Shown in pieces: positions 31,409-37,597 of a DNA stretch of 64,000 bases. The position numbers were made by a program, and so were the translations under genes. Numbering within the stretch: the stretch's first letter is position 1; each line of letters starts with the position of its first letter. The notes under the pieces are model-generated. The model was not told the origin of the DNA. It saw nothing but the letters and a program-made list of their open reading frames with translations, and made no database searches. The DNA comes from a phage: sequence record PV946933.1; one strand, written 5' to 3'.

Positions 31409-32865
31409 TTCTTAAAATTCTGAATGAAATAGCATCTATTGGATCAACTAAGCAGAAGCAAGCAATTCTTGAAAAGAATAAAGATAATGAATTGCTTAAA
31501 CGAGTATATCGTCTGACTTATTCTCGTGGGTTGCAGTATTATATCAAGAAATGGCCTAAACCTGGTATTGCTACCCAGAGTTTTGGAATGCTGACTATTA
31601 CCGATATGCTTGACTTCATTGAATTCACGTTAGCTACTCGGAAATTAACTGGCAATGCAGCAATTGAGGAATTAACTGGATATATCACCGATGGTAAAAA
31701 GGATGATGTTGAAGTTTTGCGTCGAGTTATGATGCGAGACCTTGAATGCGGTGCTTCAGTATCTATTGCAAACAAAGTTTGGCCAGGTTTAATTCCTGAA
31801 CAGCCTCAAATGCTCGCAAGTTCTTATGATGAAAAAGGCATTAGTAAGAATATCAAATTTCCAGCTTTTGCGCAGTTAAAAGCAGATGGAGCTCGGTGTT
31901 TTGCTGAAGTCCGAGGTGATGAATTAGATGATGTTCGTCTTTTATCGCGAGCTGGCAATGAATACCTAGGATTAGATCTTCTTAAGGAAGAGTTAATCAA
32001 AATGACTGCTGAAGCCCGCCAGATTCATCCAGAAGGCGTGTTAATCGATGGCGAATTGGTATACCATGAGCAAGTTGAAAAGGAGCCAGAAGGCCTAGAT
32101 TTTCTTTTTGACTCTCCTGAAAATAGTAAAGTTAAAGAGTTTGCCGAAGTAGCTGAATCTCGTACTGCTTCTAATGGAATCGCTAATAAATCTTTAAAGG
32201 GAACTATTTCAGAAAAAGAAGCCAAATGTATGAAGTTTCAGGTCTGGGATTATGTCCCGTTGGTAGAAATATACGGTCTTCCGGCGTTTCGTTTAAAATA
32301 TGATGTACGTTTTTCTAAACTAGAACAAATGACATCAGGATATGATAAAGTAATTTTAATTGAAAACCAAGTAGTAAATAACCTAGATGAAGCTAAGGTA
32401 ATTTATAAAAAGTATATTGACCAAGGTCTTGAAGGTATTATTCTCAAAAATACCGATGGATTGTGGGAAAATGCTCGTTCAAAAAATCTCTATAAATTTA
32501 AAGAAGTAATTGATGTTGATTTAAAAATTGTAGGAATTTATCCTCACCGTAAAGACCCTACTAAAGCGGGTGGATTTATTCTTGAATCAGAGTGTGGAAA
32601 AATTAAAGTAAATGCAGGTTCAGGCTTAAAAGATAAAGCTGGCGTAAAATCACATGAACTTGACCGTACTCGCATTATGGAAAACCAAAATTATTATATT
32701 GGAAAAATTCTAGAGTGCGAATGCAATGGTTGGTTAAAATCTGATGGCCGCACTGATTACGTTAAATTATTTCTTCCGATTGCGATTCGTTTACGTGAAG
32801 ATAAAACTAAAGCTAATACATTTGAGGATGTATTTGGTGATTTTCATGAGGTAACTGGTTTATGA
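31405..32865 (+). CDS. 30: ATP-dependent DNA ligase
   Basis: 486 aa; adenylation motif KADGAR; T4 ligase sequence. Confidence 0.96.
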   Translation: MILKILNEIASIGSTKQKQAILEKNKDNELLKRVYRLTYSRGLQYYIKKWPKPGIATQSFGMLTITDMLDFIEFTLATRKLTGNAAIEELTGYITDGKKDDVEVLRRVMMRDLECGASVSIANKVWPGLIPEQPQMLASSYDEKGISKNIKFPAFAQLKADGARCFAEVRGDELDDVRLLSRAGNEYLGLDLLKEELIKMTAEARQIHPEGVLIDGELVYHEQVEKEPEGLDFLFDSPENSKVKEFAEVAESRTASNGIANKSLKGTISEKEAKCMKFQVWDYVPLVEIYGLPAFRLKYDVRFSKLEQMTSGYDKVILIENQVVNNLDEAKVIYKKYIDQGLEGIILKNTDGLWENARSKNLYKFKEVIDVDLKIVGIYPHRKDPTKAGGFILESECGKIKVNAGSGLKDKAGVKSHELDRTRIMENQNYYIGKILECECNGWLKSDGRTDYVKLFLPIAIRLREDKTKANTFEDVFGDFHEVTGL

Positions 32866-33050
32866 AAGCTTACTTAGAAACAATTGTCATTGCTCAAAAA
32901 GAAGGTGGAGATGTTTCTACTTCGGTATCACAAGTCATTCTCGAATTTGTAGATGCATATGCTTATAATAAATTTACAGAAACATTTGATGCCTACGAAA
33001 AAGGTCCAAAGTTTGAAATATATCGTACTCTCTTACCACTAGATTATTAA
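32862..33050 (+). CDS. hypothetical protein (alt.1-like)
   Basis: 62 aa. Confidence 0.5.
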   Translation: MKAYLETIVIAQKEGGDVSTSVSQVILEFVDAYAYNKFTETFDAYEKGPKFEIYRTLLPLDY

Positions 33051-33071
33051 AGGCCTTCGGGCCTTTAATTT

Positions 33072-33079
33072 TATAAATA
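33072..33079 (+). promoter_or_regulatory. late promoter TATAAATA for alt (preceded by hairpin AGGCC-TTCG-GGCCT 33051-33064)
   Basis: exact TATAAATA 24 bp upstream of Alt ATG. Confidence 0.6.
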
Positions 33080-33102
33080 GAATAAACACTAGAGAGGATA
33101 TG

Positions 33103-35157
33103 ATGGAACTCATTACAGAATTATTTGACGAAGATACTACTCTTCCGATTACAAACTTAAATCCAAAGAAGAAAATACCACAAATTTTTTCAGTTCATGT
33201 TGATGATGCAATTGAACAACCAGGCTTTCGTTTATGTACCTATACATCTGGAGGTGATACTAATCGCGATTTAAAAATGGGCGATAAAATGATGCATATT
33301 GTTCCTTTTACATTAACTGCTAAAGGTTCAATTGCTAAATTAAAAGGTCTCGGTCCAAGTCCAATTAATTACATCAATTCAGTTTTTACTGTTGCAATGC
33401 AGACGATGCGTCAGTATAAAATTGATGCCTGCATGCTTCGTATTCTTAAGTCTAAAACTGCTGGTCAAGCTCGACAAATTCAAGTTATTGCTGATAGACT
33501 TATCCGTAGTCGTTCAGGTGGCAGATACGTCCTTCTTAAGGAACTCTGGGATTATGATAAAAAGTATGCATATATTCTTATACATCGCAAAAACGTATCA
33601 CTAGAAGACATTCCAGGAGTTCCGGAAATTAGTACCGAGCTCTTTACTAAAGTTGAATCGAAGGTCGGCGATGTTTATATCAATAAAGATACTGGGGTTC
33701 AAGTAACTAAAAATGAGGCAATTGCGGCATCTATTGCGCAAGAAAACGATAAACGTTCTGACCAAGCTGTAATTGTTAAAGTTAAAATTTCCCGTAGAGC
33801 AATTGCACAAAGTCAGTCATTGGAATCTTCTAGATTTGAAACACCAATGTTTCAAAAATTTGAGGCTTCAGCAGCAGAATTAAATAAACCTGCCGACGCG
33901 CCTTTAATTTCTGATGCGAACGAATTAACCGTTATTTCTACTTCAGGATTTGCATTAGAGAATGCTCTTAATAGTGTTACGGCTGGAATGGCATTCAGAG
34001 AAGCTTCTATAATTCCTGAAGATAAAGAATCTGATGTTAATGCAGAAATAAAAAATAAAGCTTTAGAAAGATTACGAAAAGAATCTATTACTTCAATAAA
34101 AACTTTAGAAACTATTGCTTCTATAGTCGATGATACTTTAGAAAAATATAAAAGTGCTTGGTTAGAAAGAAATATTAACAAGCATTCGCATTTAAATCAA
34201 GATGCTGCAAATGAGTTAGTGCAAAATTCTTGGAATGCAATAAAAACAAAGATTATTCGAAGAGAATTACGTGGATATGCTCTTACCGTTGGGTGGTCAT
34301 TGCATTCTATAGTCGAAAATAAAGATTCATCTAAATACACACCGGCTCAAAAACGCGGAATTCGTGAATATGTGGGTTCAGGATATGTAGACATGAATAA
34401 TGCTCTTTTGGGATTATATAATCCAGATGAGCGTACAAGTATTTTGACAGCACCCGAAATAGAACAAGCCATCGATAATTTAGATTCAGCCTTTAAAAAT
34501 GGCGATCGATTGCCAAAAGGTATTACTTTATATCGTTCACAGCGAATGTTACCTTCAATATATGAAGCATTGGTAAAAAATCGAGTTTTTTATTTTAGAA
34601 ATTTTGTATCAACATCGTTATATCCAAACATTTTTGGTACTTGGATGACTGATTCAGCTGTGGGTGTTTTACCAGATGAAAAACGTCTAAGCATTTCTAT
34701 CGATAAAAATGATGAAGGGCTTGTTAATTCTAGCGATAATTTAGTTGGAATTGGATGGGTTATTACTGGAGCTGATAAAGTCAATGTTGTTTTACCCGGT
34801 GGAAGTTTAGCGCCTTCAAATGAAATGGAAGTCATTTTGCCACGTGGATTAATGGTCAAAATTAATAAAATAACCGATGCATCTTACAATGATGGAACAG
34901 TTAAAACTAACAACAAGCTTATTCAAGCTGAAGTTATGACTACGGAAGAACTCACCGAATCGGTAATTTATGACGGTGACCGTCTAATGGAAACTGGTGA
35001 ATTGGTTGCAATGACAGATGATATTGAAATAGAAGACAGAGTTGACTTTGCATCATTTGTTTCATCAAATGTTAAACAGAAAGCAGAATCATCTCTCGGA
35101 ATTATTGCGTCTTGCATAGATATTACAAACATGCCTTACAAGTTCGTTCAAGGATAA
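33103..35157 (+). CDS. alt: Alt ADP-ribosyltransferase (virion-packaged)
   Basis: N-terminus MELITELFDEDTTLPITNL...; ART motifs LYRSQ, FVSTSL, EVILPRG; SD GAGAGGA. Confidence 0.93.
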   Translation: MELITELFDEDTTLPITNLNPKKKIPQIFSVHVDDAIEQPGFRLCTYTSGGDTNRDLKMGDKMMHIVPFTLTAKGSIAKLKGLGPSPINYINSVFTVAMQTMRQYKIDACMLRILKSKTAGQARQIQVIADRLIRSRSGGRYVLLKELWDYDKKYAYILIHRKNVSLEDIPGVPEISTELFTKVESKVGDVYINKDTGVQVTKNEAIAASIAQENDKRSDQAVIVKVKISRRAIAQSQSLESSRFETPMFQKFEASAAELNKPADAPLISDANELTVISTSGFALENALNSVTAGMAFREASIIPEDKESDVNAEIKNKALERLRKESITSIKTLETIASIVDDTLEKYKSAWLERNINKHSHLNQDAANELVQNSWNAIKTKIIRRELRGYALTVGWSLHSIVENKDSSKYTPAQKRGIREYVGSGYVDMNNALLGLYNPDERTSILTAPEIEQAIDNLDSAFKNGDRLPKGITLYRSQRMLPSIYEALVKNRVFYFRNFVSTSLYPNIFGTWMTDSAVGVLPDEKRLSISIDKNDEGLVNSSDNLVGIGWVITGADKVNVVLPGGSLAPSNEMEVILPRGLMVKINKITDASYNDGTVKTNNKLIQAEVMTTEELTESVIYDGDRLMETGELVAMTDDIEIEDRVDFASFVSSNVKQKAESSLGIIASCIDITNMPYKFVQG

Positions 35158-35160
35158 ATC

Positions 35161-37218
35161 ATGGAACTTATTACAGAATTATTTGACGGCGCTTCGGCGC
35201 CGGTTGTTAACTTAAATCCTAAGCATAAAATACCTCAAATTTTTGCTATTCAAGCCGGTGAAGAAAGCGTGCTTCCTGGATTTAGATTTTGTACATACAC
35301 CTCTGGTGGTGATACAAATAAAAACGTTAAGCCAGGCGATAAAATGATGCATATCGTAATGATAGGTGTTAATGAGAAACTATCATTAGTTAAACTTAAA
35401 AACTTGGGTGGAAATCCAATTGGTGTCATTAATGCGGTTTTTGATACTGCTCTTCAGACAATGAAACAATACAAAATTGACGCATGCTTATTCCGCGTAC
35501 TAAAGAGTAAAACAAATGGTGCAGCTCGTCAAATGCAAGTTATTGCCGACCGTTTAGTACGTACTAAAGGAGCAGGTCGATATGTTCTTTTAAAGGAAAT
35601 CTGGGATTACGATAAAAAGTACGCATATATTATGGTTTACCGTAAAAATGCTAATTTAGAAGACATTCCAGGTGTACCTCCTATTTCAACTGAGTTATTC
35701 ACAAAAGTTGAATCAAAGGTTGGTGATGTTTATGTAGATGTTAAAACAGGTAATGCTGTTCCTAAAGCTGTTGCTGTTGCTGCTTCTATTGCTTTAGAAA
35801 ACGATAAGCGCACGGATCAAGCTGTTATTCAGAAAACTAAAATTAGTCGTCGGTTAGCAGCACAAGCTCAATATTCTACTGTCGATGCTTCACTTCAGGG
35901 TGATAGCTTCGCTGCTAAGAAATATCAAGAGTTTGAATCTAAAGTTCCGGTATATAAAGCAGAAGGACCAATGAACTCTGGCGTTATTCAGGTTGGTTCA
36001 AACTTCAGCAAAGGAGCTATCGGTGGTATGAGAAGTGCTTCCCGTTTTAAATCTAGTGATTATGAATTAGAAAGCTTCCGAAATCATATTGCATTGGCTC
36101 ATGCGCGTTTACGTGATCCATCTATCAAGTTACAGAGCGATATATCATATCAAGGTTCTCAAGAATATTTAAAGAATAAAGAATTTTTTGATTATAAAAC
36201 TGATAAAATTTTAAGTGATCTTGCTGACATTAATATTTCTAATAGCTTTGATGTTATTAAGAAAATTGTCAATGATTTAGTTAAAGGTTCTAAAGCCACA
36301 CCAGATGAAAAGGTAGCTATTGTTCAATTTGTCATGAATGGCATTTATAAATTGATTAATGAGTCTGCTTCTCAAGCGTATGAATATGCAAGTACTGAAG
36401 TAACCCCAAAAGGATTAACTCGGGCTGAGTCTGATGTAATTGAAGATTATTGTGCAGATTCATATGTTGAAATGAACTCGTTCCTTTTAGGTAAACCGGA
36501 TTCTACCCGTGAAGAATATATGGAACGAGCTATTAAACACATCGAGACAATGGATTCTGCCTTTGCCAAAGGATCAGTTCTTCCTCCAGGAACTACACTT
36601 TACCGTGGGCAAGAAGTTACCTTTAAAACTTTACGTCATAATATTGAAAATAAAATGTTCTACTTCAAGAACTTCGTATCCACATCGCTTAAACCAAATA
36701 TCTTCGGTGAGTATGGTAAAAACTATATGGCTCTAGATGATTCCAGTACAGTATTTTCTGGTGAAGGAGAAGGTTCAGTTGATGCTGAAGATTTAATGCA
36801 TATGGGTAGTCACTCTGCTTATGCGAATGAAGATGCTGAAACTAGCGTAGGTATGGTAATTAAAGGGGCTGAGCGAATTAAAGTTATCGTTCCAGGTCAT
36901 TTATCAGGATTTCCATCAGAAGCTGAAGTTATTTTACCACGTGGAATTTTGCTGAAGATTAATAAAGTGAGTACGTACATGATGAAAGAAACTGCTTATA
37001 ATAAGTATCTAATCGAAGGCACAATCGTTCCTCCTTCTGAACAATTAGAAGAATCGGTATATGATGGCGACCATCTAATGGAAACTGGTGAAGTTCGTCC
37101 AATGGCTGGATTTAATCAATTCCTTGTAGAAGAATCAAAAGAAGAGGAAAACGAAGTTTCTCAAATCTTGGCTTCTTTGGTTAACATCAACGGAATGTCT
37201 AAAAAGTTCAAGATGTAG
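35161..37218 (+). CDS. second Alt-like ADP-ribosyltransferase paralogue
   Basis: 685 aa; shares MELITELFD N-terminus, YKIDAC, GRYVLLKE.WDYDKKYAYI, LYRGQ, FVSTSL, EVILPRG with adjacent Alt; divergent middle. Confidence 0.85.
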   Translation: MELITELFDGASAPVVNLNPKHKIPQIFAIQAGEESVLPGFRFCTYTSGGDTNKNVKPGDKMMHIVMIGVNEKLSLVKLKNLGGNPIGVINAVFDTALQTMKQYKIDACLFRVLKSKTNGAARQMQVIADRLVRTKGAGRYVLLKEIWDYDKKYAYIMVYRKNANLEDIPGVPPISTELFTKVESKVGDVYVDVKTGNAVPKAVAVAASIALENDKRTDQAVIQKTKISRRLAAQAQYSTVDASLQGDSFAAKKYQEFESKVPVYKAEGPMNSGVIQVGSNFSKGAIGGMRSASRFKSSDYELESFRNHIALAHARLRDPSIKLQSDISYQGSQEYLKNKEFFDYKTDKILSDLADINISNSFDVIKKIVNDLVKGSKATPDEKVAIVQFVMNGIYKLINESASQAYEYASTEVTPKGLTRAESDVIEDYCADSYVEMNSFLLGKPDSTREEYMERAIKHIETMDSAFAKGSVLPPGTTLYRGQEVTFKTLRHNIENKMFYFKNFVSTSLKPNIFGEYGKNYMALDDSSTVFSGEGEGSVDAEDLMHMGSHSAYANEDAETSVGMVIKGAERIKVIVPGHLSGFPSEAEVILPRGILLKINKVSTYMMKETAYNKYLIEGTIVPPSEQLEESVYDGDHLMETGEVRPMAGFNQFLVEESKEEENEVSQILASLVNINGMSKKFKM

Positions 37219-37270
37219 TTTACAAGTCACTCGTGTTGTGTTATAATAATCTTACTGACATAACATGAGG
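37218..37270 (+). promoter_or_regulatory. early promoter plus leader hairpin module, copy B (GTTTAC, TATAAT)
   Basis: 48/53 identical to copy A at 22114-22166; GTTTAC overlaps stop of upstream gene. Confidence 0.55.
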
Positions 37271-37278
37271 AACACAAA

Positions 37279-37569
37279 ATGAAATCTTCTTTGCGCTTTT
37301 TAGGTCAAGAACTCGTAGTTGAAGGCGTTATTCCTGCTGATAACGCTTTTAATGAAGCGGTTTACGACGAATTTATCAAAATTTTTGGAACAGATAAAAA
37401 GTTCGGAATTTTTCCTTCTGAAAATTTTTCAAAGCCAGAGCAGACTGAAAGTATTTTCCAAGGTGTAGTAACAGGTAAATTTGAGTCAGAAGCTCCGGTA
37501 AAAATTGAAGTTTATATTGAAGACAGTTTAGTTGCTTCAGTTGCTGCTTTTATTTCATTCCGTAAATAA
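37279..37569 (+). CDS. hypothetical protein
   Basis: 96 aa, SD GAGGA; convergent with gene 54. Confidence 0.55.
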   Translation: MKSSLRFLGQELVVEGVIPADNAFNEAVYDEFIKIFGTDKKFGIFPSENFSKPEQTESIFQGVVTGKFESEAPVKIEVYIEDSLVASVAAFISFRK

Positions 37570-37575
37570 AAATAT

Positions 37576-37593
37576 GGGGACCGAAAGGTCCCC
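37576..37593. terminator. bidirectional terminator hairpin GGGGACC-GAAA-GGTCCCC between convergent genes
   Basis: 7-bp GC stem, GNRA loop, A/T-rich runs on both sides. Confidence 0.7.
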
Positions 37594-37597
37594 ATTG

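Follow-up and report, generated by a model that had tools for sequence, protein, structure and literature searches.

A conserved tandem paralogue of alt in T4-like phages, broken in T4 itself, probably encodes a second injected ADP-ribosyltransferase

Introduction

Do T-even phages send one ADP-ribosyltransferase into the host along with their DNA, or two? Phage T4 is the reference for phage reprogramming of Escherichia coli by ADP-ribosylation, and three such enzymes are listed for it: Alt, ModA and ModB. T4 Alt (gpAlt), an NAD+:arginine ADP-ribosyltransferase, is carried in about 40 copies in the head and injected with the DNA. The question is raised by a stretch of phage DNA of 64,000 nucleotides (nt) from sequence record PV946933.1, referred to below as the window, in which alt is followed directly by a second full-length open reading frame (ORF) of the same family. 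A first-pass annotation, made from the sequence alone, had pointed to this pair and suggested a second injected ADP-ribosyltransferase with a different substrate-recognition region. Our analysis favors a reading in which the second gene, ORF2, is an ancient and conserved Alt paralogue, probably a second head-packaged, injected arginine ADP-ribosyltransferase with targets different from those of Alt. The two genes of the pair are as follows.

33103..35157 (+ strand): ORF1, the alt orthologue; 684 amino acids (aa) from the T4-equivalent ATG at 33103, 685 aa from the first ATG (33100)
35161..37218 (+ strand): ORF2, the alt paralogue (alt.-2 / Alt2); 685 aa, intact

Two adjacent alt genes with complete catalytic motifs

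The region belongs to a T4-like (Tequatrovirus) genome, read here in the opposite sense to the T4 map, and the two genes are separated by 3 nt on the + strand. ORF1 is 96% identical to T4 Alt and ORF2 41%. BLASTP aligns the two ORFs to each other at 41% identity (E = 5e-158, well beyond chance), which bears out the first-pass description of adjacent paralogues with a common MELITELFD start and conserved blocks. The length of 685 aa given there for both holds for ORF2, and for ORF1 only when counted from the ATG at 33100. Both proteins match Pfam PF03496 (ADPrib_exo_Tox; E = 2e-34 for ORF1 and E = 5.5e-20 for ORF2) and share PHROG 802, which ORF2 matches over its full length (E = 5.9e-255). ORF2 divides into the parts below.

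35161..35178 (+ strand): ORF2 codons 1-6, MELITE; predicted N-terminal propeptide (cut I-T-E / L), identical to T4 Alt residues 1-6
35179..35874 (+ strand): N-terminal (N) domain, aa 7-238; Pfam PF26846 Tevenvirinae_ADPRT; proposed packaging/delivery module
35875..36432 (+ strand): middle all-helical domain, aa 239-424; lineage-specific
36433..37053 (+ strand): ADP-ribosyltransferase (ART) domain, aa 425-631; Pfam PF03496; ends at the L-E-E631 / S cleavage motif
36604-36606 (+ strand): R482, catalytic Arg
36679-36687 (+ strand): S507-T-S509, S-T-S motif
36919-36927 (+ strand): E587-A-E589, E-x-E following the G-F-P-S of the ADP-ribosylating turn-turn (ARTT) loop
37054..37215 (+ strand): predicted C-terminal propeptide, aa 632-685; begins SVYDGDHLMETGE; counterpart of the 63 residues removed from T4 Alt

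Compared region by region in ORF2 residue numbering (1-6, 7-238, 239-424, 425-631 and 632-685), ORF1 and ORF2 are 100% identical over residues 1-6, 67% over the N domain, 12-24% over the gap-rich middle, 36-37% over the ART domain and 39% over the C-terminal tail. Central divergence had been placed at about residues 230-420 by eye, in good agreement with the aligned boundaries; that the catalytic domain is likewise strongly diverged had gone unmentioned. The middle domain has no relatives outside the family among 1.84 billion representatives searched with phmmer, apart from one borderline repetitive match, and its only match in Pfam and the PDB is an insignificant CesA-like one.

The catalytic set is present in both proteins. 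The arginine of the LYR motif is R478 in ORF1 and R482 in ORF2, the S-T-S motif occupies residues 503-505 and 507-509 respectively, and the E-x-E-V-I-L-P-R-G motif supplies EME at 574-576 in ORF1 and EAE at 587-589 in ORF2. The R, S-T-S and E-x-I-L-P-R-G motifs reported earlier are therefore all there, the last of them beginning at the second glutamate of a full E-x-E, and the possibility, named there as a refutation, that the second ORF lacks catalytic residues on careful alignment is not borne out. No substitution at R482, S507, S509, E587 or E589 occurs in 18 diverse members of the family. In an alignment made with a profile of the family, the catalytic residues of ORF2 fall on the catalytic Arg and on the Q/E-x-E motif of C3cer and BECa; a search of PDB sequences with ORF2 as a single sequence returned nothing, the toxins being reached by the family profile only.

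An AlphaFold2 model of ORF2, of moderate quality overall (predicted local distance difference test, pLDDT, 73), matches Vis, Certhrax, CDTa, VIP2, C3 and iota toxin (Foldseek, E 1e-8 to 1e-5), with probability 1.00 and target TM-scores of 0.6-0.7 against Vis, C3 and the Certhrax catalytic domain. On this model, ORF2 carries the split beta-sandwich ART fold of the C3/VIP2 type, a fold common to both ORFs, with an ARTT-loop (Q/E)-x-E. The E-x-E form goes with the arginine-specific members of the R-S-E toxin family, and by analogy with these ORF2 would be an arginine-specific mono-ADP-ribosyltransferase.

The ARTT loop distinguishes the two copies, reading F-P-S-EAE in ORF2 versus A-P-S-N-EME in Alt. 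Genes in the second position of the pair have an aromatic residue and then E-x-E (F-P-S-E-A-E in ORF2, E-Y-x-E-E-A-E, for example E-Y-P-E-E-A-E, in relatives); at the equivalent site, genes in the first position encode A, I, H or Q. Between the S-T-S motif and this loop, ORF2 also has an acidic insertion (residues 514-557) that is modelled with low confidence. Because both the middle domain and the ARTT loop differ, the targets of ORF2 would be expected to differ from those of Alt, and a different substrate-recognition surface is plausible.

Predicted processing and packaging

T4 Alt is cut by the prohead protease gp21 at ITE-6 and LTE-619, which leaves a protein of 68.2 kDa (PMC5694885), a mass that our own calculation reproduced. 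ORF1 has the same motifs, ITE-6 and LTE-619, and ORF2 has ITE-6 and LEE-631, the latter just before an invariant SVYDGD. The I-T-E / L sequence singled out in the first-pass annotation as a candidate cleavage site is thus the known gp21 site of T4 Alt (PMC5694885), conserved in ORF2, and a second, C-terminal motif that had escaped remark is conserved there as well. Among all the relatives examined, (L/I)-x-E is kept at the N-terminal site in every one and at the C-terminal site in all but P0014, which the C-terminal search pattern did not match. The predicted mature ORF2 protein comprises residues 7-631, with a mass of 69.2 kDa (the precursors of both proteins are about 76 kDa); it would begin at L7 with LFDGASAPVVNLNPK and end at E631 with PPSEQLEE. 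Since the processing ends are shared and the N domains are 67% identical, a common route into the head is expected for Alt and ORF2, and the ORF2 product would be packaged, cleaved by gp21 and injected.

The N domain of ORF2 is modelled well (pLDDT 84), and we found no confident homologue for it in the PDB. PF26846 is the precomputed assignment of the ORF2 cluster; our local Pfam search of ORF2 gave PF03496 and not PF26846. Structural models hint that the shared N domain may be a general packaging/delivery module fused to various effectors.

A side observation concerns the distribution of this fold. With positions 35161-35883 as the query, Foldseek pairs the predicted fold with large, uncharacterised proteins from unrelated phages (E 1e-8 to 1e-4, query TM-score 0.4-0.55), namely the BFVD entries A0A0A0YVG6, A0A075E0T7, A0A513QBT8, A0A4P2TEA4, A0A2L0UZ96 and A0A6J5KPZ7. 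The fold is predicted for the N-terminal parts of these proteins, some of which are labelled zeta-toxin, deaminase or ParB-like.

Prevalence, annotation and selection

About 505 public phage records match the locus, 374 of them over at least 80% of its length. Of 407 matching records, 402 contain the ORF2 body, meaning the ORF2-specific two-thirds of the gene, with 93-99% identity at the nucleotide level, and ORF2 is kept in about 80% of records matching the locus, with T2, RB68, RB10 and Shfl2 among the carriers. The order alt, ORF2, alt.-3, gene 54 recurs in T2, RB68, Shfl2, slur13, W143 and the phages Bas36, Bas38 and Bas41. Orthologues in the RB phages, T2 and the BASEL phages also have 685 aa, and the gene is annotated elsewhere as ‘Alt-like RNA polymerase ADP-ribosyltransferase’, as ‘alt.-2’ (RB phages, Shfl2 notes) or as ‘ADP-ribosyltransferase Alt2’ (BASEL phages). 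With about 400 public phage genomes carrying it, T2 included, and annotation already in place, the novelty implied for the second copy does not stand. Paralogous copies next to alt were remarked on in 2006 (PMC1524935) and 2014 (PMC4177764); in the searchable literature we found such annotation-level remarks only, and no paper studying an ORF2-type protein, its function or its phenotype.

Six ORF2 orthologues from six phages were compared, and all six copies are intact. The ratio of nonsynonymous to synonymous divergence (dN/dS) is 0.036-0.064, with dS up to 0.27 and about 100 synonymous differences between any two copies. Purifying selection on ORF2 is strong, and these ratios together with the six intact copies rule out a pseudogene.

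Alt is the more variable partner, with several divergent alleles, and Alt2 is far more uniform. The T4-type alt allele, as in the window, reaches at least 80% query cover in only about 175 of 493 records. T2, RB68, Shfl2 and slur13 have instead an Alt allele of 697 aa, which is 99% identical to the window Alt in the N domain, 33% in the middle, 67% in the ART domain and 95% in the tail. Over the middle and ART parts (window 33800-35157), T2-type and T4-type Alt differ with a dN of 0.21 and a dN/dS of about 0.4.

Age of the duplication

Dhakavirus UP19 (L010) also carries the two genes, arranged in the same order. ORF2 and the second gene of UP19 are 46% identical in the middle domain, 55% in the ART domain and 62% in the C tail, while the corresponding values between ORF2 and its neighbor ORF1 are 12%, 36% and 39%; the position-1 gene of UP19 in turn groups with Alt (ART 57-61%). 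Because the genes group outside the N domain by position and not by genome, the duplication predates the split of Tequatrovirus and Dhakavirus.

The N domains (window 35179-35874 and 33121-33816) behave otherwise and group by genome, with 66-67% identity within and 42-47% across genera. Recent gene conversion was considered as the source of the 67% identity and ruled out, since synonymous differences are saturated (proportion of synonymous sites that differ, pS, 0.64), as they are in the ART domain. The similarity of the paralogous N domains reflects constraint or old exchange; for their grouping by genome, an old conversion and a cassette exchange are both possible.

Loss of the gene in T4 and other states of the locus

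T4 itself has a truncated version of the locus. In a blastn comparison, T4 is colinear with the window at 94.6% identity through alt and into ORF2 as far as 35508, and the match resumes at 37199. Two differences separate them.

35500..37198 (+ strand): stretch missing in T4, 1699 bp
35320..35324 (+ strand): run of five A, with four A in T4; the resulting frameshift splits the T4 remnant into alt.-1 and alt.-2 (compared by eye)

The deletion is bounded by the near-identical 9-mers CTAAAGAGT (35500-35508) and CTAAAAAGT (37199-37207), and the junction lies inside them. T4 alt.-1 and alt.-2 (NP_049810 and NP_049809) together cover roughly codons 1-116 of ORF2, so that at most two small fragments could be made. 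Two small PHROGs align accordingly: PHROG 23015 (61 aa) matches ORF2 residues 1-56 (2e-40 to ORF2 versus 1e-21 to ORF1) and PHROG 15247 (67 aa) matches residues 62-117 (3e-38 versus 2e-19), for which reason we take them to be alt.-1 and alt.-2 of T4. According to the T4 record, the two arose when the start of alt was duplicated long ago. From the alignment they are evidently the remnant of a full-length gene, broken by a frameshift of 1 nt together with a microhomology deletion of 1699 bp. The objection that ORF2 might simply be a well-known T4 gene is therefore half right, in that T4 has its broken 5′ remnant, alt.-1/alt.-2, and no more. Loss of the orthologue from T4 would also account for T4 being credited with only three ADP-ribosyltransferases.

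Other arrangements exist. Escherichia phage sutha has a 696-aa alt followed by a 38-codon remnant of the Alt2 3′ end (L007 5012-5128), evidently an independent loss of Alt2 by a deletion distinct from that of T4. Four metagenomic or Sequence Read Archive assemblies (L008, L009, L014 and L015) show ligase, alt.1, a single hybrid gene and alt.-3. Their hybrid genes (P0006, P0007, P0003 and P0004) join an Alt-type N terminus to an ORF2-type body at four different crossovers, at about 45, 105, 195 and 220 residues. These loci fit unequal recombination between the tandem copies, and the source assemblies may be chimeric. In the window, the two copies are identical over at most 20 nt in a row.

Neighboring genes and expression signals

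The pair is embedded in the gene order 30.2, 30.1, DNA ligase (gene 30), alt.1, ORF1, ORF2, alt.-3 and the convergent late genes 54, 48 and 29. The signals and the right-hand neighbor are listed here.

33049..33066 (+ strand): GC-rich hairpin AAAGGCC-TTCG-GGCCTTT, directly 3′ of the alt.1 stop codon; read from the sequence
33072..33079 (+ strand): T4-type late promoter consensus TATAAATA, a perfect box 23 nt upstream of the alt start codon
35149..35153 (+ strand): Shine-Dalgarno sequence AAGGA, 7 nt before the ORF2 start and within the alt 3′ end; read from the sequence
37219..37247 (+ strand): strong sigma-70-type promoter (TTTACA, 17 nt, TATAAT, with TG), 11/12 matches; serves alt.-3
37279..37569 (+ strand): alt.-3 homologue, 96 aa, DUF5498; the right-hand neighbor in every locus state seen
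37574..37595 (no strand assigned): bidirectional intrinsic-terminator-like hairpin between alt.-3 and the convergent gene 54; closes the unit

The terminator-like hairpin at 33049..33066 parts the early unit of gene 30 and alt.1 from alt, and a conserved terminator upstream of alt has been described in T4-like phages (PMC1524935). It is missing from our terminator scan because its T-run is imperfect. On the + strand between 32800 and 37300 there is no late promoter besides TATAAATA, so none directly precedes ORF2. In T4, alt is a late gene (PMC9697503), and from these signals alt and ORF2 would be co-transcribed late. Upstream of the pair, the 62-aa alt.1 homologue (window 32862-33050) gives a full-length match to Pfam PF24647 ‘Phage blade protein’ (E = 1.9e-29).

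Proposed role and alternative explanations

In the scheme that we favor, alt and ORF2 would be transcribed late as one unit from the promoter at 33072. Both precursors would enter the prohead by means of a common module, made up of the N-terminal propeptide with the N domain and of the C-terminal tail, and gp21 would trim ORF2 after I-T-E6 and L-E-E631 to a mature protein of about 69 kDa. The enzyme would then be ejected with the phage DNA and, in the new host, would mono-ADP-ribosylate arginines with NAD+ as an enzyme of the R-S-ExE type, acting on targets other than those of Alt. The earlier suggestion of a second injected ADP-ribosyltransferase has gained an intact paralogue, a full catalytic set, a predicted ART fold, purifying selection and a late context, and its different recognition surface is a plausible part of it. 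As a functional reading it is reasonable, and it has come through all the checks made at the level of sequence.

Several points weigh against this scheme. A transposon screen in which the Alt proteins of T4 and Bas37 proved important names a single gene for each phage (10.1101/2025.11.20.689424). Virion mass spectrometry of SH7, a phage with two copies, shows the first copy only, by 2 peptides, the run being a shallow one that detected 13 proteins (PMC5238451); we assigned these peptides to the first copy by coordinates against the matching database record. We found no virion detection of an ORF2-type product in the searchable literature. Late co-transcription is deduced from consensus motifs, and arginine specificity from the general E-x-E rule. 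Finally, the gene must be dispensable on some hosts at least, since T4, sutha and several metagenomic phages live without it.

The SH7 result would also be expected if Alt2 were active but left out of the head, working late in the producing cell on host or phage proteins, and the processing evidence is indeed at the level of motifs. We regard this as unlikely, given that Alt2 has in common with Alt its N-terminal propeptide and N domain as well as the tail and the cleavage motif at the C-terminal end, all of them conserved across genera. None of these parts would be of obvious use to an enzyme confined to the cytoplasm, and the SH7 run is too shallow to count as a negative. A somewhat smaller chance goes to Alt2 being a redundant back-up or dosage copy that acts on the targets of Alt (Arg265 of RNA polymerase alpha, and others): it shares family, catalytic motifs and operon with Alt, and T4 grows well on Alt alone. 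Against redundancy, the two lineages have been distinct since before the Tequatrovirus/Dhakavirus split, with ART domains at about 36% identity, middle domains unrelated in sequence and differing ARTT loops. Both genes are moreover under purifying selection in about 80% of records, and simple redundancy rarely lasts so long.

That T4 and sutha hold fragments only, and that a minority of database clusters are shorter (415-624 aa), might instead suggest that ORF2 is a duplicate in decay, or else an internal head protein with a structural role and no catalytic activity. This is very improbable in view of dN/dS values of 0.04-0.06 over about 100 synonymous differences per pair, six of six copies intact and catalytic residues that are all invariant; the main database cluster of 685-aa ORF2 proteins has 772 members.

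What would a second injected enzyme mean? Alt of T4 is reported to be needed to evade a Mokosh type I defence system, and Bas37 ‘Alt’ (bas37_0033) did not complement it (10.1101/2025.11.20.689424). In Bas36, Bas38 and Bas41, where both genes are present, the higher-numbered one is called ‘Alt’ and the lower-numbered one ‘Alt2’; for this reason bas37_0033 is probably copy 1. The choice of targets by enzymes of the Alt family therefore matters biologically, and about 80% of sequenced T4 relatives, T2 included, have a fourth ADP-ribosyltransferase. We advance more tentatively the broader proposal that Alt2 could be a second virion-delivered effector with a host target of its own (for example, a defence system or another part of transcription or translation), injected by most T-even phages. 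If so, T4 gives too small a picture of what its own genus injects. Alt2 is an obvious candidate for a host-range or anti-defence factor. The value of the analysis lies in pointing to a neglected gene that is already annotated; it does not describe a new kind of system.

Comparison with known systems

The closest known relative is T4 Alt, with which ORF2 shares its length, the R-STS-ExE motifs, the gp21 cleavage motifs, the operon and the late promoter, as well as a four-part architecture of propeptide, N domain, middle plus ART domain and C-terminal propeptide. It differs from T4 Alt in overall sequence (41% identity), in a middle domain that does not align confidently (12-24%) and in the ART domain (36-37%). 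T4 alt.-1/alt.-2, the ‘alt.-2’ of the RB phages and the ‘Alt2’ of the BASEL phages occupy the same locus in the same orientation, between alt and alt.-3.

ModA and ModB are short proteins of about 200 aa that are made early and not packaged. ORF2, with 685 aa, an Alt-type N domain and a position behind a late promoter, is set apart from them by these descriptions. ORF2 and these two are phage R-S-E ADP-ribosyltransferases of the same broad clade (PMC5512222).

Further afield, C3bot, C3cer, Vis, Certhrax, CDTa, iota Ia and BECa have the catalytic fold and the Arg / S-T-S / (Q/E)-x-E set of ORF2, and the aromatic-containing loop of C3cer, Y-P-G-Q-Y-E, resembles that of the position-2 lineage. 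Identity to these C3/VIP2-like toxins is 14-20%, and the place of their translocation or adaptor domain is taken in ORF2 by an N-terminal, phage-specific module of about 420 residues. The toxins are secreted, whereas ORF2 would be delivered by phage ejection.

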